The notes beneath the pieces are model-generated. The model had not been told where the DNA came from, did no database searches, and saw only the letters and a list, made by a program, of their open reading frames with translations. Position numbers and translations under genes: made by a program. This document shows, piece after piece, positions 22,812-48,562 of a stretch of DNA of 64,000 nt. Where the stretch lies: the NCBI RefSeq assembly GCF_045037415.1, contig NZ_CP173438.1; one strand, 5' to 3'. Origin of the DNA: Escherichia coli. Lineage in GTDB: Bacteria; Pseudomonadota; Gammaproteobacteria; Enterobacterales; Enterobacteriaceae. The stretch's first letter is position 1; every line of letters starts with the position of its first letter.

Positions 22812-25241
22812 ATGACATTAACAAGACGCGAATTTATTAAACATAGCGGTATTGCCGCTGGGGCGCTGGTGGTGACATCGGCTGCACCGTTACCTGCATG
22901 GGCAGAAGAGAAGGGCGGCAAAATTCTCACCGCGGGACGTTGGGGAGCGATGAACGTAGAAGTGAAGGACGGCAAGATTGTTTCTTCGACAGGCGCGCTG
23001 GCGAAGACCATACCGAACTCCTTACAGTCTACGGCGGCGGATCAGGTACACACCACGGCGCGTATTCAGCATCCGATGGTGAGAAAAAGCTATCTCGATA
23101 ATCCACTGCAACCGGCGAAAGGTCGTGGCGAAGATACCTATGTACAGGTGAGCTGGGAACAAGCATTAAAACTGATTCATGAGCAACACGATCATATTCG
23201 TAAAGCTAACGGACCATCGGCCATTTTTGCCGGATCTTACGGCTGGCGTTCTTCTGGCGTGTTGCATAAAGCGCAAACCTTACTGCAACGTTATATGAAC
23301 CTGGCGGGCGGTTATTCCGGGCATAGCGGCGATTATTCAACCGGAGCGGCACAGGTGATCATGCCGCATGTGGTCGGTTCTGTGGAGGTCTATGAACAGC
23401 AGACTTCCTGGCCGCTGATTCTGGAAAACAGTCAGGTGGTGGTGTTGTGGGGCATGAACCCGCTGAATACCTTAAAAATTGCCTGGAGCAGTACCGATGA
23501 ACAAGGGCTGGAATACTTCCATCAGCTGAAAAAATCTGGCAAACCAGTGATTGCCATTGATCCTATCCGCTCCGAAACCATCGAATTCTTTGGCGATAAT
23601 GCCACCTGGATCGCACCGAATATGGGCACCGACGTGGCACTGATGTTAGGGATTGCGCATACCCTGATGACACAAGGCAAACACGATAAAGTGTTCCTTG
23701 AAAAATACACTACCGGGTATCCGCAGTTTGAAGAGTATCTGACAGGCAAGAACGATAATACGCCGAAGAGTGCGGCCTGGGCGGCGGAAATTACTGGCGT
23801 GCCGGAAGCGCAGATTGTGAAACTTGCAGAACTGATGGCGGCAAATCGCACAATGCTGATGGCAGGCTGGGGAATTCAGCGCCAGCAATACGGTGAACAG
23901 AAACACTGGATGCTGGTGACGCTGGCGGCGATGTTAGGGCAAATTGGTACACCGGGCGGCGGGTTTGGTTTCTCTTATCATTACTCCAACGGTGGCAACC
24001 CGACGCGTGTTGGCGGCGTGCTACCAGAAATGTCTGCGGCGATTGCCGGACAGGCCAGCGAGGCCGCTGATGATGGCGGAATGACGGCGATTCCTGTTGC
24101 CCGTATCGTCGATGCGCTGGAAAATCCTGGCGGCAAATATCAGCATAACGGTAAAGAACAAACGTATCCGAATATCAAAATGATCTGGTGGGCGGGTGGC
24201 GGTAACTTTACCCATCACCAGGATACTAATCGTCTGATTAAAGCATGGCAGAAACCGGAGATGATCGTCGTTTCTGAATGCTACTGGACCGCAGCAGCCA
24301 AACACGCAGATATCGTATTACCGATCACCACATCGTTTGAGCGCAATGACCTGACGATGACCGGTGATTACAGCAACCAGCATATTGTGCCGATGAAGCA
24401 GGCTGTCGCTCCGCAATTTGAAGCGCGCAACGATTTTGACGTGTTTGCCGATCTTGCTGAATTACTCAAACCTGGCGGAAAAGAGATCTATACCGAAGGT
24501 AAAGATGAAATGGCGTGGCTGAAATTTTTCTATGATGCCGCTCAGAAAGGTGCCCGTGCGCAACGCGTGACGATGCCGATGTTTAATGCCTTCTGGCAGC
24601 AAAATAAACTGATCGAAATGCGCCGCAGCGAGAAGAACGAACAGTACATTCGTTATGGTGATTTCCGCGCCGATCCGGTGAAAAATGCGCTGGGTACGCC
24701 AAGCGGCAAAATTGAGATTTACTCCAGAACGCTGGAAAAATTTGGCTATAAGGATTGCCCGGCACACCCAACCTGGCTTGCGCCTGATGAGTGGAAGGGT
24801 ACCGCCGACGAGAAGCAGTTGCAGCTTCTGACCGCACATCCGGCACACCGTTTACACAGTCAGCTTAACTATGCGGAACTGCGTAAAAAATATGCGGTTG
24901 CCGATCGTGAACCAATCACTATTCACACCGAAGATGCTGCTCGCTTTGGTATTGCGAATGGCGATCTGGTGCGTGTCTGGAACAAACGTGGTCAGATTCT
25001 GACAGGCGCGGTGGTGACTGACGGGATCAAAAAAGGCGTGGTATGCGTGCATGAAGGTGCATGGCCAGATCTGGAAAATGGCTTGTGTAAAAACGGTAGT
25101 GCGAACGTGTTAACGGCGGATATCCCCAGCTCGCAGCTGGCGAATGCCTGTGCCGGTAACTCTGCGCTGGTGTATATCGAAAAATATACGGGCAATGCGC
25201 TGAAGTTAACGGCGTTTGATCAGCCAGCTATTCAGGCATAA
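22812..25241 (+). CDS. torZ: TMAO/N-oxide reductase TorZ (BisZ), molybdopterin oxidoreductase
   Basis: ORF 22794..25241; start placed at [18 protein letters not shown]... (twin-arginine signal RREFIK); about 809 aa, molybdopterin oxidoreductase family. Confidence 0.92.
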
Positions 25242-25248
25242 GACGTAA

Positions 25249-25275
25249 AAAGCGCCCGGAAACGGGCGCTAAATT
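25249..25275. terminator. bidirectional terminator between convergent torZ and cmoB
   Basis: Hairpin agcgcccggaaacgggcgct with a flanking A-run and T-run. Confidence 0.5.
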
Positions 25276-25276
25276 T

Positions 25277-27424
<2,148 letters not shown>

Positions 27425-27476
27425 ACAAACTCCCTTTAAAATGGCCGATGGCACCTGTCTATGATAGGTGGCAAAT

Positions 27477-28217
27477 TCAGAAAAGAGAAGATTGCTGTGG
27501 AATAGCCGGAACTGCTCCGATCTCTGGAAGCGTTTTACGTAAGTCTTCCCACAGGGTATGTACCAGTTCCGGGGCCTGGGCAATATCTGGCGTATGTAAA
27601 AAAAGATAAGGCGTAGTGGTCTGATGCCACTGCGCTAATTTTTGTAACCAGACCTGAAATAATTCCCGGTTTTGCGTCATATCATCACTACCGATAAAAC
27701 GGATCAGTGGATTTTTCGCCGTCAGTACAGCATGTACCGGAACTTTAGGTTTTTTTCGTTGAGCGTAGCGAATAGCTTCACTGTGTGGACGTGCTGCATG
27801 AACCGGGCGGCTGTCTAAAATCACCCGATTAACGCCGCGCTGATGTAAACCGCGATTAAGCGTTTGTTCCTCTTCCCCTTTGGCGAAAAACTGTGGATGG
27901 CGGACTTCCACACCATAATTAAATTCGCCGGGAAGAGAATCGAGAAAATGCCAAAGCGCAGGCAGCTCCCGTGGGCCGAATGTGGCAGGCAGTTGCAGCC
28001 AGTATTGTCCAATGCGCGGAGCCAACGGTGACATGCGGGTCAAAAATTCAGTCACTAAATCATCGCAATGCCGTAATGCTGCCTGATGCGAAATAGTCGC
28101 CGGAAACTTAAAACAGAAGCGGAAGTCATCTGTGGTCTGCTCACGCCAGCGCAGGACAACCTCGGGTTTCGGCAGGGCATAAAGCGTGGTGTTACCCTCC
28201 ACACAGTTAACATGACG
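27477..28217 (-). pseudogene. yecE: yecE (DUF72 family) lacking about 29 N-terminal codons; disrupted by prophage integration
   Basis: Frame matches YecE from ...RH(V)NCVEGNTTLYALPKPEV to the C-terminus ...AIPQQSSLF; upstream of about 28217 the frame continues into phage sequence with no ATG and an in-frame stop at 28260-28262. Confidence 0.75.
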
Positions 28218-28228
28218 GGTATTAAGGA

Positions 28229-29542
28229 TTAACTTACTGATTTTAATAAGCCTCTGGTGTCACTTTGGTGACTATGGGGCATCATTGGGACATAATCTGT
28301 CAGCTTCTGATTCAGCATTGCGATCTGTTCTGCATTGCTGTCAGTCATCCATGCTCCGTATACATTGAATACCATCTGGGCACTTGCATGGCCCATCTGG
28401 CTGGCAATGAAGCTTGGGTTTGCTCCGGCAGATAATGACCAGCACGCATAAGTGTGTCGTGACTGGTATGCCTTTCGATGCCTGATCCCTGCACGCTTAA
28501 TGGCTGTTTCCCATGAGTCACCTACAGAATCGACTTTGTAGACAAAACCTACCTGTTCGCTTTTTCTAACCACTTGAGGGTTAAACACGAAAGTACATTC
28601 ATGGTTCACTGAACGTCCATATTCACGTAGTTGCACCTTGATGTTGTACTGCTTACCCAGTCTTGTCATTTCAGCCTGATTTTTCAGGACACTGATAGCG
28701 GGCTGGATAAGGTGCACAACCCTGTTTGTGCTTGCTTCAGTTTTCGGTAGAGTGAACTCACCAAGTTTCGTATAATTGCGCCTGATGGTAATTGTTCCTG
28801 CCTTCAGATCGATATCTTCCCAGGCCAGGGAAACCAGTTCACCGTGACGCATTCCTGTGTACACAGCCAATGACCACAGGTTTTTCGTCTGCTGATGTCG
28901 GCAAGCATCTATCAGGCGAATAAATTCGTCACGAGTTAGCGGATCTGGCTCTGCCCTGGCTCTTTTAAGAGGCTTAATTCCCTGGAAGGGATTTGCTTCT
29001 AAGTAACCGTGATCTGCAGCAAACTGAAACATTCCAGCGATTGTCGTCATGTAATAATTTACAGTAACGACGCTCCGTCCTTTTGCTGCTGCTTTGTTTT
29101 TCGTTGAATTCTGATACCCGGTAAGCAAATCTTTCCTGATATACAGCAATTCCTCTTTGGTTACCGATGACACCAGTCTACTGCCTCCAATTTTCGGAAC
29201 CATCGTTCTTGCAACGGATTCATAGCGATTGAATGCATTTGCAGAGATTTCCATTCGTTTCAGATCCAGCCACTTTTCTTCAAGTTCCTTCACCGTAATT
29301 TCTTTTTTACTTACCCCAAAAGCCTGAAGGTTGGGGGAGTCAGGGAACTGTGCAGCATAATCAAAGCTTCCTGTGCGGATGGCAAAACATACTGATGTCC
29401 GCAGTTCCCCGGCGATCTTCCTGTTCTTGGCAGTGTCAGGGACACCAAGATTTTCCCTGACACGTTTACCTTTAAAATTAAACCAGATGCGTAATGTGCC
29501 GCCGTGGTTTTCGACGCCTGTTGGATATTTGACTTTATCCAT
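28229..29542 (-). CDS. int: phage integrase (tyrosine recombinase)
   Basis: 437-aa ORF; C-terminal catalytic region with R...HxxR...Y arrangement (HTYACWS...GHASAQMVFNVYGAWM) typical of lambdoid integrases; abuts the attL junction. Confidence 0.9.
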   Translation of the reverse strand: MDKVKYPTGVENHGGTLRIWFNFKGKRVRENLGVPDTAKNRKIAGELRTSVCFAIRTGSFDYAAQFPDSPNLQAFGVSKKEITVKELEEKWLDLKRMEISANAFNRYESVARTMVPKIGGSRLVSSVTKEELLYIRKDLLTGYQNSTKNKAAAKGRSVVTVNYYMTTIAGMFQFAADHGYLEANPFQGIKPLKRARAEPDPLTRDEFIRLIDACRHQQTKNLWSLAVYTGMRHGELVSLAWEDIDLKAGTITIRRNYTKLGEFTLPKTEASTNRVVHLIQPAISVLKNQAEMTRLGKQYNIKVQLREYGRSVNHECTFVFNPQVVRKSEQVGFVYKVDSVGDSWETAIKRAGIRHRKAYQSRHTYACWSLSAGANPSFIASQMGHASAQMVFNVYGAWMTDSNAEQIAMLNQKLTDYVPMMPHSHQSDTRGLLKSVS

Positions 29543-29597
29543 CGATACCTCCAGACGCCCAAGAGCGATACGAGCTTACATATTTCATGATATTAAA

Positions 29598-29834
29598 TCA
29601 CCTGGGTTGTTTGTTTTTCATTGAGGCGACCCAGGCATCTATTGCTTTTCTGTTATACATACATTCACTGGAAGGCTTTGGATTACCGTCTGGTGATACG
29701 TGAATATACTCTCTTCCAACCATCCAGCATTCTTTCCGGGCCCGAAGAATTGTGCCTGGTTTGAGCCCGGTAATTGCGATAAGAACGCTTTCACAAACCC
29801 ATTCATTGGGAGCCAGTTGAATCACATTGCCCAT
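29598..29834 (-). CDS. excisionase-like DNA-binding protein
   Basis: 78-aa ORF immediately upstream of int on the same strand; weak resemblance to lambda Xis (GREY..H..S region); assignment positional. Confidence 0.55.
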   Translation of the reverse strand: MGNVIQLAPNEWVCESVLIAITGLKPGTILRARKECWMVGREYIHVSPDGNPKPSSECMYNRKAIDAWVASMKNKQPR

Positions 29835-29992
29835 GTATTACCTCACACAACACTCAGCCCACGGCAGTGGCAACACACTTCAAACATTCGCTTCACAACT
29901 TCACGACAGTAGAAGCCGTCAACATCTCGCGTCAGGTCATAGCGATTGCCGTAACGCTGGTGGACCCATCGTTCAAATGCTTTATTCATTCT

Positions 29993-30235
29993 TTACTTCC
30001 TTTTTATGGCTCGTAATTTTTTCAGGTGCTTTTCCTGCTCAGTGTCCGCGAGAATTTTGCGGTACTCCTGGTGGTCAATATGTTCGAACAGGCAGTTTAA
30101 CTCACCAATGCGTACCCGCCCGGATCGTCCGTCCATCCGTCGAAAGAACACTGAGTGCTCAGTGATGCGAGTAATCACCACGGGGTATCCGGCTCTGTCC
30201 GTGTATATCTGACCGCGTTGAATCAAAGCGAACAT
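29993..30235 (-). CDS. hypothetical phage protein
   Basis: ORF 29993..30289; start placed at MFALIQRGQ... with a GGGGA Shine-Dalgarno upstream. Confidence 0.35.
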   Translation of the reverse strand: MFALIQRGQIYTDRAGYPVVITRITEHSVFFRRMDGRSGRVRIGELNCLFEHIDHQEYRKILADTEQEKHLKKLRAIKRK

Positions 30236-32331: not shown

Positions 32332-32632
32332 TGGTTGCCTCCTTTGCCGGGATTTCTAACTTTTGAGTGGTTGTATCAAATTCAAACAACTTAACCACGT
32401 CATCAAACAGGACATAATCACCATCAGGATCTTCAGTCATATCTGCGCCACAATCCTGACCGCACGAGTCGCAACCATCCATATCAAGCTCGTATCGCTT
32501 CAGGTTTGCGATATTTGATAAATTCAGCGCCAGTACAGCCAGGTCATAAACCTCTTCGGCAGTGACATCGCTGTTCAGTCCCATTTCATGGCGATATATG
32601 ATTTTTTCTACTCGTTGTTTTGTGATCGTCAT
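32318..32632 (-). CDS. hypothetical phage protein
   Basis: ORF 32318..32656; start placed at MTITKQRVEKIIYRHEMG... Confidence 0.35.
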   Translation of the reverse strand: MTITKQRVEKIIYRHEMGLNSDVTAEEVYDLAVLALNLSNIANLKRYELDMDGCDSCGQDCGADMTEDPDGDYVLFDDVVKLFEFDTTTQKLEIPAKEATSEQD

Positions 32633-32892
32633 TTTTCTCTTCACTCCGATATACAAGGATTACCACACCCCCTCTGCTGATTGCGCGAGCTGGATCCCCT
32701 GGTTCCATGCCGTCAATTCCGAAGGCTTCGGAAAACGCATTCATTGCCTTCTGGCGTTCATCCTGCTTACGGCGTTTATTCCATTTTTTCAGGAACAACA
32801 GCGACAGCCACCGTCCGCTGCAGAACACGATGTAAAAATAACCAAGGAGCGCCAGGCCGACATTCAGGGCCGTTTCTATGGTTAGTTGTGAG

Positions 32893-33141
32893 TCAGTTGC
32901 CATTTCTTACCTGTTTAAGTAACTGGTTGAACATAACACTTAGGGGATTGCTGTATCCAAACGGCAGATTGTTTACGCAGTACAGAATCATTTTGTTTTT
33001 TTCTCCAGTTCGTACTATTAACCCATTCCACAATAACCGTGATAATTCATTACTGATAGAAGTTGCGCTTCTTCCAAGTGCGAGGGATATATCTTCTCTA
33101 CTGCAATCTGGATTTTCCTGGATATACTCGATAACGGTCAT
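32893..33141 (-). CDS. putative winged-helix DNA-binding protein
   Basis: ORF 32893..33183; start placed at MTVIEYIQENPDCSREDISLALGRSATSISNELSRLLWNGLIV..., helix-turn-helix-like pattern. Confidence 0.35.
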   Translation of the reverse strand: MTVIEYIQENPDCSREDISLALGRSATSISNELSRLLWNGLIVRTGEKNKMILYCVNNLPFGYSNPLSVMFNQLLKQVRNGN

Positions 33142-33151
33142 GTGGTCCCTT

Positions 33152-33733
33152 TTACTTAATATCTGTTTCGGATTGCATGCCATGAGTATTCATTTCGTTA
33201 ATAATTTCATCCAGAAGGATTTCAAGCCCTTCTCGACCCATATCTGAAAGAATGAAACCTTTATCAGGGGAAGTAGTGAGCATTTTCTGATAAAGAAACA
33301 GCGCTCTTCCCATTCCTTCAGCTTCGCCGTATTTTTGAATTAAATTCCATTCAATATACTGTTGTAAGGCAAATCGAATGGGGCCGGGATATATCGTCAT
33401 AAACCCATACATCCCGTTATATACCACGGCGTGTTCAGTTGTTCCGTGTTCATTCAGGATATCAATTGTGCCGTTCTTGTCTTCTTCTTCGTTGATGAAT
33501 GTCGTCACATACAACCATCGCCACTGAGCAACCTTCATCTCAACCGGAAGTTTACCCAGTAATCCTGCTTCGTCGGCTTGCGCCAGACACTGAAGGATAC
33601 GTAAACCTCGCACATTAGGAGTATCGAATTCTCCGGCATCCAGACGACGTATGGCGTCGTGATAATCAATCGTCATACTGCCAGTTCGTATACCATTGGC
33701 TGTTGCTTCAGCCTGGAATTCATCGTATTGCAT
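33152..33733 (-). CDS. hypothetical phage protein
   Basis: 193-aa ORF with no recognisable motifs. Confidence 0.45.
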   Translation of the reverse strand: MQYDEFQAEATANGIRTGSMTIDYHDAIRRLDAGEFDTPNVRGLRILQCLAQADEAGLLGKLPVEMKVAQWRWLYVTTFINEEEDKNGTIDILNEHGTTEHAVVYNGMYGFMTIYPGPIRFALQQYIEWNLIQKYGEAEGMGRALFLYQKMLTTSPDKGFILSDMGREGLEILLDEIINEMNTHGMQSETDIK

Positions 33734-33738
33734 GATAT

Positions 33739-33921
33739 TTATTCCTCATCTTCATCTGCTGGTGCAATAACGTCATATCCTGCCTTTTCTGCAATAAACA
33801 GGAATGTTGAAAGAGTTCCTACAAGTTCATCGTCATGAACATGGCGAATGAATATTACTTTCCCGTTTTTGATGGTCAGCAATACTCTGGTTTGTTCGTG
33901 TTCTGCTGTTTTCTGATGCAT
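33739..33921 (-). CDS. hypothetical small phage protein
   Basis: 60-aa ORF tightly packed after the upstream gene. Confidence 0.3.
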   Translation of the reverse strand: MHQKTAEHEQTRVLLTIKNGKVIFIRHVHDDELVGTLSTFLFIAEKAGYDVIAPADEDEE

Positions 33922-34115
33922 TATTATCTCCCGTATGCTTTACGCAGAAATAAGCAGGCAATATGCATGTAATTTTCACCGTATTGTGCAATAAGGCAGG
34001 CGGTCTTGTGTGATGCCATATTCTTTATAAAAGTCACAATAAAGCCTCCTGTGGATTAAGGTTGTAACAATCCCCGGCGATAAAACCGCAATAAACGTTC
34101 AGGGCATATTTGTTG

Positions 34116-34481
34116 TTATTGCGCTAATTCTTTTTCGGCAGCAGCTTTTGTATACTCACATGCAAAATTCAGAATTTCGCTGCCGAGTGTTTTCGTTTCG
34201 TGATTACTGGACATATGTAATACCTGTGTTGCATGCAATAAATGATAAACATTTACCGCAAATGAATCAGGCTCCAGGCAAATGCCTTCGTAATTATCTT
34301 GCTGTGAGGTTGTTTCTGTCATTGCTCCTGAAGTGCATACGAGCCTGTTTTTGACAATTCTCTTTTCTCTAATCACTATATCGGCAACATCTATTGCCTT
34401 TACAACCTCCGGGAGAAGTTCCGGGTTTGTATAATCAAAGTCATCAACATGGAGAACAGTTATGTTTTCGAACTTTTTCAT
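34116..34481 (-). CDS. hypothetical protein in the cI-downstream (rex-equivalent) slot
   Basis: 121-aa ORF with no recognisable motifs, preceded by a 128-bp intergenic region. Confidence 0.45.
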   Translation of the reverse strand: MKKFENITVLHVDDFDYTNPELLPEVVKAIDVADIVIREKRIVKNRLVCTSGAMTETTSQQDNYEGICLEPDSFAVNVYHLLHATQVLHMSSNHETKTLGSEILNFACEYTKAAAEKELAQ

Positions 34482-34609
34482 GGTTTCCTCAGCTGACTTA
34501 TATGTTCTGCTATATAGCGAGTCTCAGAAGTGTTTTCATATTAAGACTGTTTCCGCAATGATTGATAAAAATGTTCGCATGTACCTTGAGGGGCGAAGCG
34601 GCGATTATG

Positions 34610-35113
34610 TCACCATTGGTATTGGTTCTTCCGTAGAAGAGCTTCGCGAGATAAGGGGCAAACTTGTTGAGATGCGTCATGGTGTTGCTGCTCCTCACTT
34701 TTTGGTTGCTCCGGAGGAGTAACCTCACCAGTTAACAGCCACATCGCATCGCAGCCAAGAATATTTGCCAGTGGGATAAGCATACTGATAGTTGGTTCAT
34801 ACTCTCCGCTCTCCCACTGGATGATAATTTCTTCATCGAGATCGAGCAGCCTGGCGAGTTCGGCGGTTGTTAAGCCGCAGGCTTCGCGTTGGGTGCGAAG
34901 ACGGTTGTTGATTGCAGAATTTTTGTTCTGTAAAAGCATTGCTGACGATAGCTTTCTGGATATGCTATTTGTCATATCCCATGCCAGTCCTGCGCATGAC
35001 TCTATATCGCTAGAGAGCGTAGCATCAGGTGTTGCTTTTGCTATTAGTGTAATGAGGCTGCCGAGGTTTTTCAGTTCTTCGAGACAGTCAAGAGTTGTAG
35101 CTTTATTGATCAT
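34610..35113 (-). CDS. HTH-XRE family DNA-binding protein with an unusual N-terminal extension
   Basis: 167-aa ORF; classic XRE helix-turn-helix segment NNRLRTQREACGLTTAELARLLDLDEEIIIQWESGEYEPTISMLIPLANILGCDAMWLL located in the C-terminal half; true start uncertain (internal Met candidates). Confidence 0.55.
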   Translation of the reverse strand: MINKATTLDCLEELKNLGSLITLIAKATPDATLSSDIESCAGLAWDMTNSISRKLSSAMLLQNKNSAINNRLRTQREACGLTTAELARLLDLDEEIIIQWESGEYEPTISMLIPLANILGCDAMWLLTGEVTPPEQPKSEEQQHHDASQQVCPLSREALLRKNQYQW

Positions 35114-35216
35114 GAGATGATACCTCAGTTACGAACTTTGTTTTATGGTAACTAAGGTATCAAGGTGTGGCAAGTGATTTTTGATACTTTGGTTTCTTTT
35201 TGTGTTTTGTTTCTGG

Positions 35217-35873
35217 TCAGAAAATATCCCACCTGGCATCAACCACAACACCTACTATTTCGCAATCATTGTCCATTTCTATGATTGGATATTGTGGATT
35301 AAGGGGCTTTAGAAACGCCTTTCCCATGTCAGAAATATATTTTTTGAATGTTGCTTCATTGGTAGATTTTTTTCTGGCGATGACGTAACACCCTGAAAAA
35401 ACTTCTTTATCTGGGTTGACAAGGATCGACATTCCTTCAGGAAATGTTATTCCTACGGGCGAAGTCATTGAGTCTCCGTGCACTTCCAGCCAGAACCCCC
35501 TCTCACCAGCGTATTTTACAGAATGCCTCCAATTATCCTGATCATACATGTTGTAGTCATCACCAGAAGTTGCGAATAATCCTGCCTGAACCCAGTTAAT
35601 TACAGGGTAAGAGTGTGCTGTGTCTCTCTGTGGGCAGCTCTTAACATTATTTTCCCAATGCTTATCTTTTTCATCTCCGTTCTGAAGCCACTGCGGTGAA
35701 CACCGCAGTGCAGCTGCAACTTTAAAAAGGGTGTCACCGTTGAAACTTTTTGTAAGGCCTTGCTCGGCTTTACTGATTGCAACTCTGGTGATCCCAGCTT
35801 TTTTAGCCAACGCATCTTGTGTTAACCCAGCTTTTTGCCGTGCGTTGATGAGACGTTCACCTAAAGACTTCAT
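35217..35873 (-). CDS. CI-like prophage repressor (N-terminal HTH plus C-terminal S24 LexA-like peptidase)
   Basis: ORF 35217..35948; start placed at MKSLGERLINARQKAGLTQDALAKKAGITRVAISKAEQG; C-terminal domain has VHGDSM (Ser) and downstream Lys of the S24 autoprotease. Confidence 0.82.
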   Translation of the reverse strand: MKSLGERLINARQKAGLTQDALAKKAGITRVAISKAEQGLTKSFNGDTLFKVAAALRCSPQWLQNGDEKDKHWENNVKSCPQRDTAHSYPVINWVQAGLFATSGDDYNMYDQDNWRHSVKYAGERGFWLEVHGDSMTSPVGITFPEGMSILVNPDKEVFSGCYVIARKKSTNEATFKKYISDMGKAFLKPLNPQYPIIEMDNDCEIVGVVVDARWDIF

Positions 35874-35984
35874 TTTTCTTCTCCTCTCATGGCTGTTGAT
35901 ACTAAAGTAACAGAATTTCTTGATACTTTGGATTCCTGTGGTTAACATCGTTGAATAACAAAGTATCTGGTGTGAGACTAAAGA

Positions 35985-43219: not shown

Positions 43220-44260
43220 GTGAACATTCAGGCAGTAGACATTTTTTGTGGTGCGGGGGGCTTAACTTTTGGGCTAAAAAAAGCCGGGATTGAGGTTTCT
43301 CATGGTATTGATATTGATGAATCCTGCCGTTTTGCTATTGAGAGCAATAATCCTTTAACGCAGTTCATTAATCAGTCAGTTACAGAACTGCAATCCTGCG
43401 ATGTGTCTGCTATGTTCAAGGAAGGAAATATTAGATTGCTTGCTGGATGTGCTCCTTGCCAACCGTTTTCCAAGTATCGTAATCCAAATAGCCGTAAAGA
43501 CGATACAAAGTGGCGTTTGTTATATGAGTTTCAAAGGCTTGTAAGTGATGTCATGCCAGAGCTTGTGACGATGGAGAATGTTCCTCAACTTAGAAACCAT
43601 AAGGTTTTTGAAGGGTTTGTTAGTGCATTAAAGACTCTTGGATATCATTTGTGGTACGACGTTGTAAGATGTTCTGAGTATGGCTTACCTCAAAATAGAC
43701 GTAGATTAATTCTAATTGGTTCCCAATTGGGGCCGATCAGCCTTGATCAAAAAAAAGTTAGCCGTAAAGTTACTGTTAAGGATGCTATTGGTAGGTTGCC
43801 AAAAGTAGGGGCAGGTGAGAAGCTGGAAAGCGATCCCTTGCATCGTTCGCCTAAATTGATGGATATCAATCTTAAACGAATCATGCATTCTTTACCTGGT
43901 GGTACGTGGGATGACTGGCCTGAAGAAATTAGAGCAGACTGTCATAAAAAGAATTCAGGTGCTACCTATAAAAGCGTTTATGGACGGATGGTTTGGGACG
44001 ATACTAGCCCTACGATAACTACCCAGTGTTATGGATATGGAAATGGACGATTTGGCCATCCTGAGCAAAATCGCGCCATAACTTTGCGTGAAGCTGCGAT
44101 TTTGCAATCCTTTCCAATGGATTATAAATTCCTTGACAAGGAGACGCCTTTTTCATTCCAAAAATTGGGGACAATGATTGGAAATGCTGTTCCCCCTATA
44201 ATTGGTCAGATAATAGGGGAAACATTTATCAGACATGTTGAGGGGATAAATACCCGTTAG
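43220..44260 (+). CDS. DNA (cytosine-5)-methyltransferase, Dcm family
   Basis: 346-aa ORF, GTG start; C5-MTase motifs I FCGAGG, IV PCQPFS, VI ENV, VIII QNRRR and X GNAV are all visible. Confidence 0.85.
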   Translation: MNIQAVDIFCGAGGLTFGLKKAGIEVSHGIDIDESCRFAIESNNPLTQFINQSVTELQSCDVSAMFKEGNIRLLAGCAPCQPFSKYRNPNSRKDDTKWRLLYEFQRLVSDVMPELVTMENVPQLRNHKVFEGFVSALKTLGYHLWYDVVRCSEYGLPQNRRRLILIGSQLGPISLDQKKVSRKVTVKDAIGRLPKVGAGEKLESDPLHRSPKLMDINLKRIMHSLPGGTWDDWPEEIRADCHKKNSGATYKSVYGRMVWDDTSPTITTQCYGYGNGRFGHPEQNRAITLREAAILQSFPMDYKFLDKETPFSFQKLGTMIGNAVPPIIGQIIGETFIRHVEGINTR

Positions 44261-44918
44261 AGGTAATATAATTTTCTGTTGAGTTGATTAATAAACGCAA
44301 ATATAGATCAATTCTTTCTGACCTCGATTTGACTTCTTCTAAAGGGTCTATTTGACCTTTTTTAGAAAAGCTGGTACTTCCATGTGCCAGCTCATTTCTG
44401 ATATCTTTAAGTAAATCTAAGTCAACACCATTTCTACACTCTGGTGAGTTTGCAACAGTTATTCCGTAAGCTTGTGTTATTTTGTGCAATACAGACTTGC
44501 AAACATTACCATTGAATTCTTTACGTATGTTTAATGAGGCTGAAATGATCCTTTTAGATATATCGGAACCAATTTTTTGATAAAGAGATTTTCCCGATTC
44601 ATTATCTGAAATGATACGGTGCAAGATATTTACTTGGAATTTCTCCCTGAGTGATGCGTAATTTACTTCATTATCTTGCAAATGGTCATAAATTGACTCA
44701 ATGCATCCTCTGGCAGTGTTTTCAACCTGATTGTACAGCATCATGTGCACGGATGATTTTAAAATGTTAACCCTAAGGGTATTTGATTCTATTTCATCTT
44801 TATGCGTTTGCTGATCTAACTGCTGAGTCTGAGCCTCTAAAGATGACGCAAGAGAAAGCAATTCCATAATATCTCTTGCTCTTTCTTCGTATTCATCTCT
44901 TAAATCAATCAAACTCAT
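44229..44918 (-). CDS. HEPN-domain protein (predicted RNase/nuclease), partner of the DUF262 protein
   Basis: 229-aa ORF; C-terminal Rx4H HEPN motif (DIRNELAHG); ATG 2 nt after the stop of the upstream DUF262 gene with an AGGA Shine-Dalgarno inside that gene's 3' end. Confidence 0.65.
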   Translation of the reverse strand: MSLIDLRDEYEERARDIMELLSLASSLEAQTQQLDQQTHKDEIESNTLRVNILKSSVHMMLYNQVENTARGCIESIYDHLQDNEVNYASLREKFQVNILHRIISDNESGKSLYQKIGSDISKRIISASLNIRKEFNGNVCKSVLHKITQAYGITVANSPECRNGVDLDLLKDIRNELAHGSTSFSKKGQIDPLEEVKSRSERIDLYLRLLINSTENYITSNGYLSPQHV

Positions 44919-44920
44919 AG

Positions 44921-46078
44921 TTACATTCCTAATAATTTATCTTTGACATAAAATATTCTGTTTTTGAGTTGGCTGGTGTTGTTGGCACTATCAGCAGTAA
45001 CTATGGTTTCAAATTCCTCCCCAAACAGCCAGTCTCCTACAGGAATAACCGGAGCCTGTAGATGTGGATTGGCTTTTAAGGCAAGAGCAGTTCCCACTGC
45101 TATGGCTTCGTATCTAGCACGGGGGGTGGTTTTGCTTGTTGGTGTCTTTTTAAACCCCATAGGGAAATGAGCATCTACAAAAGCAAGCATGCTTTCAAAA
45201 TCATGTTTAAATTTGTCTACATCTTGTTGTGTGACCCTTTCGGCCTGAACATTAAGATAATTGTCAATAAAAGGAGCGACATAACCCTTATAATTTTCTA
45301 AATCATTTAAGTATGCAAAAAATCTCAAAACTAACTCACGATGATCGCCATTCGAACGTTTCCGGTCTGATAATGGAGCTAGACTAGCGAAAAGTGGATT
45401 TGTTGAGCAAGGAGTCACAACATCCCTATAGAAAATTGAAGTGGCCGCATCTGAACCATGTCTAACCTCCATCGCTTCCAGTCTCTTAACACCTGAATTT
45501 ATTCTTTCGAATAAATCTCTTCTATGTTGCTCCTCAACATCACCTTTCAATTCAATAAATCTTAGTGATGCCCTTAAAAATCGCCTCTGGCGGCTAGCCA
45601 AAAGATCTGAAAATTTGAAGCCCTCTAAACTTTTGAGTTCTTTTAAGTCTTTCAATTCAAACTGATTGTTCCAAAAGTAGTAAATTGAGCGAATCCTTTG
45701 TGAACCGTCAATAATTTCTACACGACCATCCAACTCAGGATCTTCATTAAATACGTCGGAGATGTAGAGGTACGGGATTGGAAAATCTAATAATATACTT
45801 TCGATGAATCGAGAGGCTGTTTTGATATCCCATTTGTAATCGCGTTGATAATCAGGAATAAAAAGTTCGTTTTTGTCAGTTTCAAGATTATTGCCATACT
45901 TTTGTACAATTAATTCAACGGTCCATTCACGTACGTTGTATCCAATATTTCTCTGAGCAAGCCTAATCTCGTTGTCGGCAGAAGTGACCAAGGCTGCAAT
46001 TTCAGCTTTTTTTCTATTTTTCGCGTTTTCATCTTGAATCTGAGCAAGCTCTTCTTTGAGTTCTTTGAGTGTGGTCAT
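44921..46078 (-). CDS. DUF262 (ParB/Srx-like, GmrS-N-type) domain protein without an HNH/DUF1524 domain
   Basis: 385-aa ORF; DUF262 hallmarks FIPDYQRDYKW and IIDGSQR near the N-terminus; long helical C-terminal region with no nuclease motif. Confidence 0.75.
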   Translation of the reverse strand: MTTLKELKEELAQIQDENAKNRKKAEIAALVTSADNEIRLAQRNIGYNVREWTVELIVQKYGNNLETDKNELFIPDYQRDYKWDIKTASRFIESILLDFPIPYLYISDVFNEDPELDGRVEIIDGSQRIRSIYYFWNNQFELKDLKELKSLEGFKFSDLLASRQRRFLRASLRFIELKGDVEEQHRRDLFERINSGVKRLEAMEVRHGSDAATSIFYRDVVTPCSTNPLFASLAPLSDRKRSNGDHRELVLRFFAYLNDLENYKGYVAPFIDNYLNVQAERVTQQDVDKFKHDFESMLAFVDAHFPMGFKKTPTSKTTPRARYEAIAVGTALALKANPHLQAPVIPVGDWLFGEEFETIVTADSANNTSQLKNRIFYVKDKLLGM

Positions 46079-46529: not shown

Positions 46530-46679
46530 AGGCTTTTTTATTTGTGGTAATGGGCGGCTGGTGGGTGTTAGCGGCACCTGCCAGCCATCTGCTCATGCGT
46601 TGGGGTCACAAGCAAACCTCAGGCCCATCTGCTTTGCGCAAAAGCGGTATGAGCCTATCAGAGAAGTGCTTATTGATCT

Positions 46680-47420
46680 ATGGCTAATACTGTAAAAATA
46701 TCCAGTTGTGAGTTAATCAACGCCGACTGCCTGGAATTTATCCGGTCGTTACCCGAAAATTCTGTTGACCTGATAGTCACGGACCCGCCGTACTTTAAAG
46801 TGAAGCCTGAGGGCTGGGATAACCAGTGGAAGGGCGACGATGATTACCTGAAGTGGCTGGACCAGTGTCTGGCGCAGTTCTGGCGGGTGCTGAAACCTGC
46901 CGGAAGTCTTTACCTGTTCTGTGGTCATCGCCTGGCATCTGATATCGAAATCATGATGCGTGAACGCTTCAGTGTGCTGAACCATATTATCTGGGCGAAG
47001 CCGTCCGGACGCTGGAACGGATGCAACAAGGAAAGCCTGCGGGCGTATTTCCCCGCCACAGAGCGCATTCTGTTCGCGGAACATTATCAGGGGCCGTATC
47101 GTCCGAAAGATGCCGGGTATACGGCGAAGGGCAGTACGGCTGTGTCGGACAGGGCTTACATATTGCCAAAAAACTGCTTCCGTATATCCCTAATAACGCG
47201 GGGATCCTGCTGGTACCATGCTGTCGTGGTGGTTCGGCATTCACCCAGGGCACGGAGGGGACATTCAGCGAGTCCACGGGGGCCAGTCAGGATTCGGCTC
47301 GCTGGGGAGTGGGTAAGCCGTTATATCAGGATCTGCTTTTCCGCACGAAGGCAGCATTGCAGAAAAACCCGAAAAACGTTTTGCTGGCGATATGCTGGAT
47401 GCAGGGGGAATTCGATATGA
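46680..47420 (+). pseudogene. N6-adenine/N4-cytosine-type DNA methyltransferase, N-terminal fragment only (frame lost after about 140 codons)
   Basis: Motif IV TDPPYF and ...LNHIIWAKP... are present, but no motif I follows; the frame degenerates into low-complexity sequence while the overlapping frame becomes NanS-like. Confidence 0.45.
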
Positions 47421-48562
47421 CGAATGCCAGTTACGCCCAGCAGCCAGCAGCATTTCTTGCAATGGTACAGCAGTTCCGTGCTGACCTTGCCGGGCTGGCG
47501 GCGCAGTGTCACGGTGGAAGTCCGGCATCAGTCCCCTGGATTTGTGGCGACACGACATACGTGTGGAAACAAGAACACGGTACGCAATATGAAGTGGTAT
47601 ATGGTGCATATAAAGGTAAAGAATCCCAGCAGATTTATTTTGTTCCCTTTATGACCGATGGTAGCGGAGTTAATACACCGACAAACAACCCGTCAGAAGA
47701 TCCTGATATTGCCGGGTCTGGTTATTACGGTTCGGCATCCCGAACGAACAAAAACTGGGTATCATCAAATCGCCCGACGCATTTCAGCTCATGGGCGCGT
47801 CGTGGCATTATTCCCGATCGTATGGCAACTGCTATTCTGAACGTAGCCGGTCGCACCTTAGCCTTCATTAGTGGTAAGGCACCGGAAATCAAACCCTCGC
47901 CCGGCGGCGACACTCCATCGGGGCCGTCTGATGGTGACACATCCGTTCGTACAGTCTCCCTGCTGCCGACAGCCGGAGAGGCTGCTGCGCAGGGCTGGAC
48001 CATCACCGGCGGCAGTGTTGCGCTGGAAGATGGTGTGTTTAAGGTTACCAAGCAGAGCAATAAAACTTGGTCCCTGATGCATCCGGTGGATGACGCAGTC
48101 TCCCTGCTGACACGGGGTGGCAGACTGAGCTGTAAGTTTCGACTGTCAGGCGCACTGACCAACAACCAGTTCGGTCTGGGAATTTATCTGTGTACCGATG
48201 TAGCGTTACCTGACGTCGTGGCGATGACCGGGACTGGTAACCCGTTCCTGATGTCGTTCTTCACCCAGACCACAGACGGCAAACTGAATCTGATGCATCA
48301 CAGGAAAGCAGGAAACACAAAGTTGGGCGAGTTCGGGAATTACAGTAACGACTGGCAGACGCTGGAGCTGGTGTTCACCGCCGGCAGTGCCACGGTTACT
48401 CCGAAACTGAATGGAGTGGCTGGCCCGGCATTCCAGGTCATAAAAGACAGTCTGACACTGGGGCTGAATGCGCTGACGCTGACGGATATTACCAAAAATG
48501 CAGCGTATGGCGTTGAGATAGAAAGTCTGGTGCTGGAGATAAATGCACCAGCATCATCATAA
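47021..48562 (+). CDS. prophage NanS-like sialate O-acetylesterase (NanS-p type), apparently 5'-truncated
   Basis: Frame matches recalled YjhS/NanS from ...QYGCVGQGLHIAKKLLPYIPNNAGILLVPCCRGGSAFTQGTEGTFSE... onward, plus a C-terminal extension; the N-terminal GQSN-containing region was not seen. Confidence 0.55.
   Translation: MQQGKPAGVFPRHRAHSVRGTLSGAVSSERCRVYGEGQYGCVGQGLHIAKKLLPYIPNNAGILLVPCCRGGSAFTQGTEGTFSESTGASQDSARWGVGKPLYQDLLFRTKAALQKNPKNVLLAICWMQGEFDMTNASYAQQPAAFLAMVQQFRADLAGLAAQCHGGSPASVPWICGDTTYVWKQEHGTQYEVVYGAYKGKESQQIYFVPFMTDGSGVNTPTNNPSEDPDIAGSGYYGSASRTNKNWVSSNRPTHFSSWARRGIIPDRMATAILNVAGRTLAFISGKAPEIKPSPGGDTPSGPSDGDTSVRTVSLLPTAGEAAAQGWTITGGSVALEDGVFKVTKQSNKTWSLMHPVDDAVSLLTRGGRLSCKFRLSGALTNNQFGLGIYLCTDVALPDVVAMTGTGNPFLMSFFTQTTDGKLNLMHHRKAGNTKLGEFGNYSNDWQTLELVFTAGSATVTPKLNGVAGPAFQVIKDSLTLGLNALTLTDITKNAAYGVEIESLVLEINAPASS

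Follow-up and report, generated by a model that had tools for sequence, protein, structure and literature searches.

The Prophage at yecE

The window, the 64,000-nucleotide stretch of Escherichia coli DNA analyzed here, contains a yecE gene separated from its own 5' end. The host-derived 3' part of the gene occupies 27477–28210 on the minus strand, starting with the second base of codon 29, ending with the stop codon at 27477–27479, and covering most of the DUF72 domain. Beyond 28210, away from yecE, the sequence is phage. A gene for a 437-aa tyrosine integrase (28229–29542, minus strand, stop codon at 28229–28231) comes first, followed by one for a 78-aa excisionase (29598–29834, minus strand). 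They open the in-window part of a lambdoid prophage (28211–64000), which includes int and xis, early, replication, Q, lysis, and head genes, and some of the tail genes; attR and the rest of the prophage lie past the window end.

The locus is readily understood by comparison with complete E. coli genomes. In K-12 and in WP3-W18-ESBL-07 it is uninterrupted and reads aspS / yecD-yecE-yecN-cmoA-cmoB / torZ, with a yecE of 819 nt that encodes 272 aa and whose start overlaps the yecD stop. A megablast search with window positions 27400–28700 identified strain Ecol_AZ146 (NZ_CP018991.1) as 100% identical, the window being the reverse complement of its sequence, and the distance between the two prophage junctions in that record gives a length of 51,058 bp. 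The yecE part of this query was matched in 5425 of 5426 complete genomes. Most match only to query base 811 or 823, corresponding to window positions 28210 and 28222, while 489 of the 5426 (approximately 9%) have the same junction and are matched through it into the integrase gene. Window positions 27400–28210 are 100% identical to strains in which yecE is uninterrupted. In strains PM22 and EL361 the yecE match ends at query base 424 or 165; because a few genomes end there, other elements must interrupt yecE elsewhere.

These comparisons, together with those described below, leave little doubt that a 51,058-bp lambda-like prophage lies inside the 5' end of yecE and that its int-xis-attP module is of the P27 type. 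No evidence contradicting the insertion itself was found.

Attachment Cores and Strand Exchange

The junctions were defined by a three-way alignment of attL, attB, and attR. The attL core, CACACAGTTAA, occupies 28200–28210, inside the interval 28190–28220 where the first-pass annotation had expected it, and its last 7 bp, CAGTTAA, occupy 28204–28210. The attR core, CACGCAGTTAA, lies beyond the window, at 524359–524369 of the Ecol_AZ146 record, beside yecD and the 85-nt 5' piece of yecE; it is the matching repeat that had been predicted for the other prophage end, and it is present in the same genome. From the phage side to the host side, the attR sequence reads CCGTATCACGCAGTTAA and then, across the boundary, AGTGGCGGGCAT, and a further search, using the attR region as query, places the onset of host homology precisely at the first core base.

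At attL, host yecE homology ends at 28210 if the match must be exact and at 28222 if imperfect similarity is allowed. The difference is due to the phage-side flank of the core, CATGACGGGTAT (28211–28222), which matches the replaced host sequence AGTGGCGGGCAT at 8 of 12 bases, with no similarity beyond. This flank is a putative core-type half-site for integrase binding.

Alignment to the uninterrupted yecE-yecD locus, the check that had been proposed, defines the attB core. When window positions 27000–28210 are joined to the host flank of attR, 2411 of 2411 bases agree with the empty WP3-W18-ESBL-07 locus. The rejoined flanks regenerate the full 272-aa YecE, and no bases are lost or gained at attB. 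The reconstructed attP, in turn, is contiguous in CharmingMan phage (PP925830) and also across the junction of the circularized genome of P27, whose GenBank record (AJ298298) starts and ends with annotated attL and attR sequences, both of them the 11-bp CACGCAGTTAA. In the free CharmingMan phage the order is distal arm, core, int-proximal arm. Chance is far from sufficient to account for a junction that falls exactly at an annotated phage att core and whose host flanks together restore an empty site without a mismatch. Taken with the core repeats, the faultless attB reconstruction, the identity of the integrase, and an attP that is contiguous in the genomes of free phages, the junctions establish that the insertion is the product of site-specific recombination by a tyrosine integrase.

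Alternatively, phage DNA might have come to lie beside a truncated yecE by rearrangement, by deletion, or through an artefact of assembly. Nothing was found in favor of such an event apart from a single-base difference between the two cores, A at attL and G at attR. This difference is that between a host attB allele and a phage attP allele: at core position 4, A is present at attL and in WP3-W18-ESBL-07, and G at attR and in P27, with K-12 attB also having G. In addition, the perfect rejoining of the host flanks, the recurrence of the same junction in 489 complete genomes, and its coincidence with the annotated P27 core all argue for site-specific integration. The occupancy, allele, and rejoining results refute the artefact or rearrangement for practical purposes, and its probability is vanishingly small.

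The same allelic difference helps to place the exchange. The host A is kept at attL and the phage G at attR, whereas the sequence on the right-hand side of the core is of phage origin at attL and of host origin at attR; the exchange therefore falls within CAGTTAA (28204–28210), the only block identical across attL, attR, attB, and attP. Strand exchange would thus be confined to these 7 bp, with the exact cut positions deduced from sequence. Their surroundings are consistent with such a role. In attB, CAGTTAA is the best center of a dyad, CCCTCCAC-n-CAGTTAA-n-GTGGCGGG, with 7 of 9 symmetric pairs. Dyad symmetry around the same block in attP amounts to 6 of 9 pairs both in P27 and in CharmingMan; in the attP rebuilt from the window it amounts to 5 of 9, tied with a center 2 bp away. 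These features suggest a core layout of the lambda type, in which a 7-bp overlap would lie between inverted core-type sites. As in lambda, exchange would then occur in CAGTTAA between imperfect inverted core-type sites in attB and attP.

The arms of attP also carry repeats. Two TGGG(G/A)CA sequences on the plus strand (28275–28281 and 28286–28292) lie 75 and 86 bp away from the start of the 11-bp core, and four further copies are located in the distal arm beside attR. All six share one orientation and have nearly equal distances from the core in three phages, P27 and CharmingMan among them; across the window the motif has a density of 0.19 per kb. The repeats are probably arm-type integrase binding sites, a prediction that rests on their sequence and placement.

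Integrase, Excisionase, and Phage Relatives

The integrase is identical to that of the Stx2e phage P27 at 417 of 436 residues (96%). In an NCBIfam search it showed similarity to tyrosine recombinases that fell below all curated cut-offs, and the excisionase, whose P27 counterpart occupies the same place, gave no match. Because that search returned no match above cut-off, the identity of the two proteins rests on P27 similarity and on the names assigned by PGAP. Comparison of the int-xis region with a phage collection gave DNA identities of 99.8% with PhiR49_2, 94.9% with P27, and approximately 80% with CharmingMan.

The resemblance to P27 (phiP27) is close within this module and ends there. 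Both phages have the same type of integrase, the same position of xis, the same 11-bp att core, the same layout of arm repeats, and the same target, yecE. The host attB, however, has A rather than G at core position 4 in the present case, the prophage measures 51 kb as against 42.6 kb for P27, and the rest of its genome is unlike P27, the int-xis region being the sole match to it in the phage collection. The earlier statement that yecE serves Stx-converting and other lambdoid phages is borne out by this integrase and by the reviews cited below, with the qualification that the present prophage carries no stx genes.

Comparison with lambda is also instructive. Both systems have a tyrosine integrase gene beside attP, an excisionase gene upstream of it, a 7-bp identity block with imperfect inverted repeats, and clustered arm repeats on both sides of the core, the sites here being predicted from sequence. 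They differ in the sequences themselves, in spacing, and in target, which is within a gene here and the intergenic gal-bio region for lambda; moreover, the integrase stop codon of the present prophage lies only 18 nt from the core. In outline, a lambdoid prophage with a P27 int-xis-attP module recombined, through its tyrosine integrase, into attB inside yecE.

What Remains of yecE

Insertion displaced 85 nt of yecE, comprising codons 1–28 and the first base of codon 29, and left codons 29–272 at attL. The first-pass annotation was right that N-terminal codons had been removed, though its figure of about 29 was slightly too high. As it had recognized, the minus-strand frame now reads ...RHVNCVEGNTT..., in place of the RHFNCVEGNTT of intact YecE: codon 29 has become GTT, replacing F with V, while R27 and H28 are re-encoded by the bases of the phage flank. 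At attR, the 5' part of yecE beside yecD forms a 105-nt ORF of 35 codons that ends in phage DNA and that PGAP flags as incomplete. The stop-start overlap between yecD and yecE is severed, and no intact yecE start is contiguous with the copy in the window.

Upstream of the host-derived part, the minus-strand frame is open through phage DNA as HQRLIKISKLILNT, a stretch that lacks ATG, GTG, and TTG, until an in-frame TGA closes it at 28260–28262; translation of 28268–28191 on this strand gives PK*HQRLIKISKLILNTRHVNCVEGN. The absence of an upstream ATG and the positions reported for this stop codon and for that of the integrase are all correct. The earlier description of the gene as start-less holds in that no ATG is left in frame; it does not hold strictly, as a GTG is present and PGAP uses an ATT. 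That GTG (28200–28202, minus strand; ORF 27477–28202), which corresponds to Val32 of YecE and had been put forward as an internal start, is the only canonical start left in the frame, and it has no Shine-Dalgarno pairing upstream (+1.2 kcal/mol).

The PGAP annotation raises a second alternative, namely that the insertion leaves yecE working. According to it, the phage end would provide a new start (ATT 28245–28247 or GTG 28200–28202) and a short N-terminus, and a hybrid DUF72 protein would be made by read-through from int. PGAP annotates just such a hybrid phage-host ORF (27477–28247, minus strand, overlapping the 3' end of the integrase gene), which starts at ATT and encodes the 256-aa protein WP_042040108.1. 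It carries no pseudogene mark, because the Pfam DUF72 match is largely retained: the domain spans residues 21–249 of intact YecE and scores 158.5 bits in the hybrid as against 171.2 in the intact protein. A GAGG just upstream of the ATT has an anti-Shine-Dalgarno pairing energy of −5.8 kcal/mol, the phage flank preserves R27 and H28, and on the minus strand between int and the truncated gene, yecE', there is no terminator-like site in a scan that performed no better than on shuffled sequence.

These points are outweighed by others. Translation in E. coli starts at ATT extremely rarely. The GAGG is very close to this codon, ending 3 nt upstream, and P27 has GAGACC at this position. Both ATT and GAGG lie inside the integrase coding sequence, which explains their conservation, and the GTG is no better placed, as described above. 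The comparison of two integrase lineages bears most directly on the question. PGAP uses ATT here and in SY033, while in LZHX12, whose integrase belongs to a different lineage, it selects ATA, which gives an N-terminal extension, ISFSIIELDYYS, unrelated to KISKLILNT. The extension upstream of yecE' thus differs between phage lineages, and there is therefore no conserved phage-supplied N-terminus. Finally, the lost residues 1–28 align with residues 13–41 of the solved homologue EF0366 (PDB 1vpy) and are therefore a conserved part of the family, even in so distant a relative. The idea that the phage restores yecE with its own 5' end was rejected after these lineages had been compared and the ribosome-binding sites scored, and a working hybrid must be considered improbable. 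The 256-aa protein is unlikely to be real, and the proteins annotated as intact are most likely the outcome of start-codon fitting, an annotation choice.

Gene-restoring integration, of the kind known at icd and at tRNA genes, was likewise considered and rejected. The icd phages e14 and 21 and the tRNA-gene phages resemble the present one in having att inside a gene, and here too the core flank resembles the replaced host sequence (8 of 12 bases, encoding R27 and H28). Those phages, however, bring along their own version of the gene end that they displace, and the gene stays intact. The present prophage displaces the 5' end of yecE and supplies neither codons 1–26, nor an ATG, nor a conserved substitute; only 8 of the 12 bases past the core are host-like, and the extension is unrelated to YecE residues 1–26.

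The preferred reading, then, is loss of function: judged from its sequence, yecE is most likely inactive for as long as it harbors the prophage. The downstream piece has lost its ATG, its link to yecD, and a conserved N-terminal segment, and precise excision would restore the gene. Speaking against a loss of function are the missing pseudogene flag, the almost full-length DUF72 match, and the lack of mutations. With 100% identity to intact alleles, what remains of yecE shows no onset of decay, which fits a recent or reversible insertion.

The annotation of severed yecE genes as intact DUF72 proteins through ATT or ATA starts was observed in the window (27477–28247) and at two loci in other genomes (L009, 278–1048, and L010, 278–1057). 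By accepting such starts, PGAP hides the disruption of yecE in RefSeq gene tables and in gene-content comparisons.

Transcription across the Junction

The int gene and the downstream genes yecE'-yecN-cmoA-cmoB are on the same strand. A promoter and terminator scan of 26900–30000 gave sites no more numerous than in shuffled sequence, and the lack of a terminator-like site between int and yecE' on their strand is accordingly a weak result. Read-through from int into yecE'-yecN-cmoA-cmoB is possible. By extension, the insertion could rewire the locus, with cmoA and cmoB, which serve in tRNA modification, and perhaps a non-canonically started hybrid YecE coming under the control of phage promoters. 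We regard this as very improbable; if true, it would couple host tRNA wobble modification to prophage state in the approximately 9% of E. coli that have the junction.

yecE as a Phage Insertion Site

Reviews and genomic surveys include yecE, whose function is unknown, among the places where Stx phages insert, citing the P27 paper (Recktenwald and Schmidt 2002). It is a well-known site, and the present case is an ordinary one that will not surprise specialists: a further, non-toxigenic member of a known group. It confirms yecE as an attachment site in wide use among phages, and its significance goes little beyond bookkeeping. That the site is also used by phages without stx bears on PCR assays that take yecE occupancy as a sign of an Stx phage.

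Prophage Gene Content

The prophage has a lambdoid layout, with int, xis, a LexA-family repressor, replication genes, Q, lysis genes, terminase, and head and tail genes. In Shiga-toxin-converting phages stxA and stxB follow Q; both are absent from the annotation of the whole prophage, including the region downstream of Q, and the phage does not belong to that class. In their place, downstream of the Q antiterminator and in contrast to P27, is a cargo block (43220–46078) of three genes. They encode a cytosine-5 DNA methyltransferase (43220–44260, plus strand), a HEPN-like nuclease (44229–44918, minus strand), and a DUF262 protein (44921–46078, minus strand) that matches the PADLOC models NsnA (5.6e-46) and PD-T4-2_A (4e-27). 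Probably the prophage carries an anti-phage or restriction module here. Beside it, at 46679–48561, PGAP marks a truncated DNA methyltransferase lacking its C-terminus and a DUF6645 protein lacking its N-terminus, which suggests a past rearrangement of the cargo region.

More genes of this kind are found beyond the window end, toward attR, where the segment L004 of Ecol_AZ146 (25097–28604) contains a gene pair for a SLATT-domain protein and a reverse transcriptase, as well as a gene for a macro-domain protein between the tail-fibre and tail-fibre-assembly genes. All three resemble additional cargo for defence or counter-defence.

In sequence, int, xis, and the att sites appear undamaged. Frameshifts affect the tail-tip gene gpJ (32446–35918 of the same segment) and a dinI-like gene (24633–24852), and the prophage may consequently be defective for the production of infective particles. 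A few kb past the prophage in Ecol_AZ146, a copy of the IS3-family element IS1397 is located between znuB and ruvB (15893–17241 of L004).
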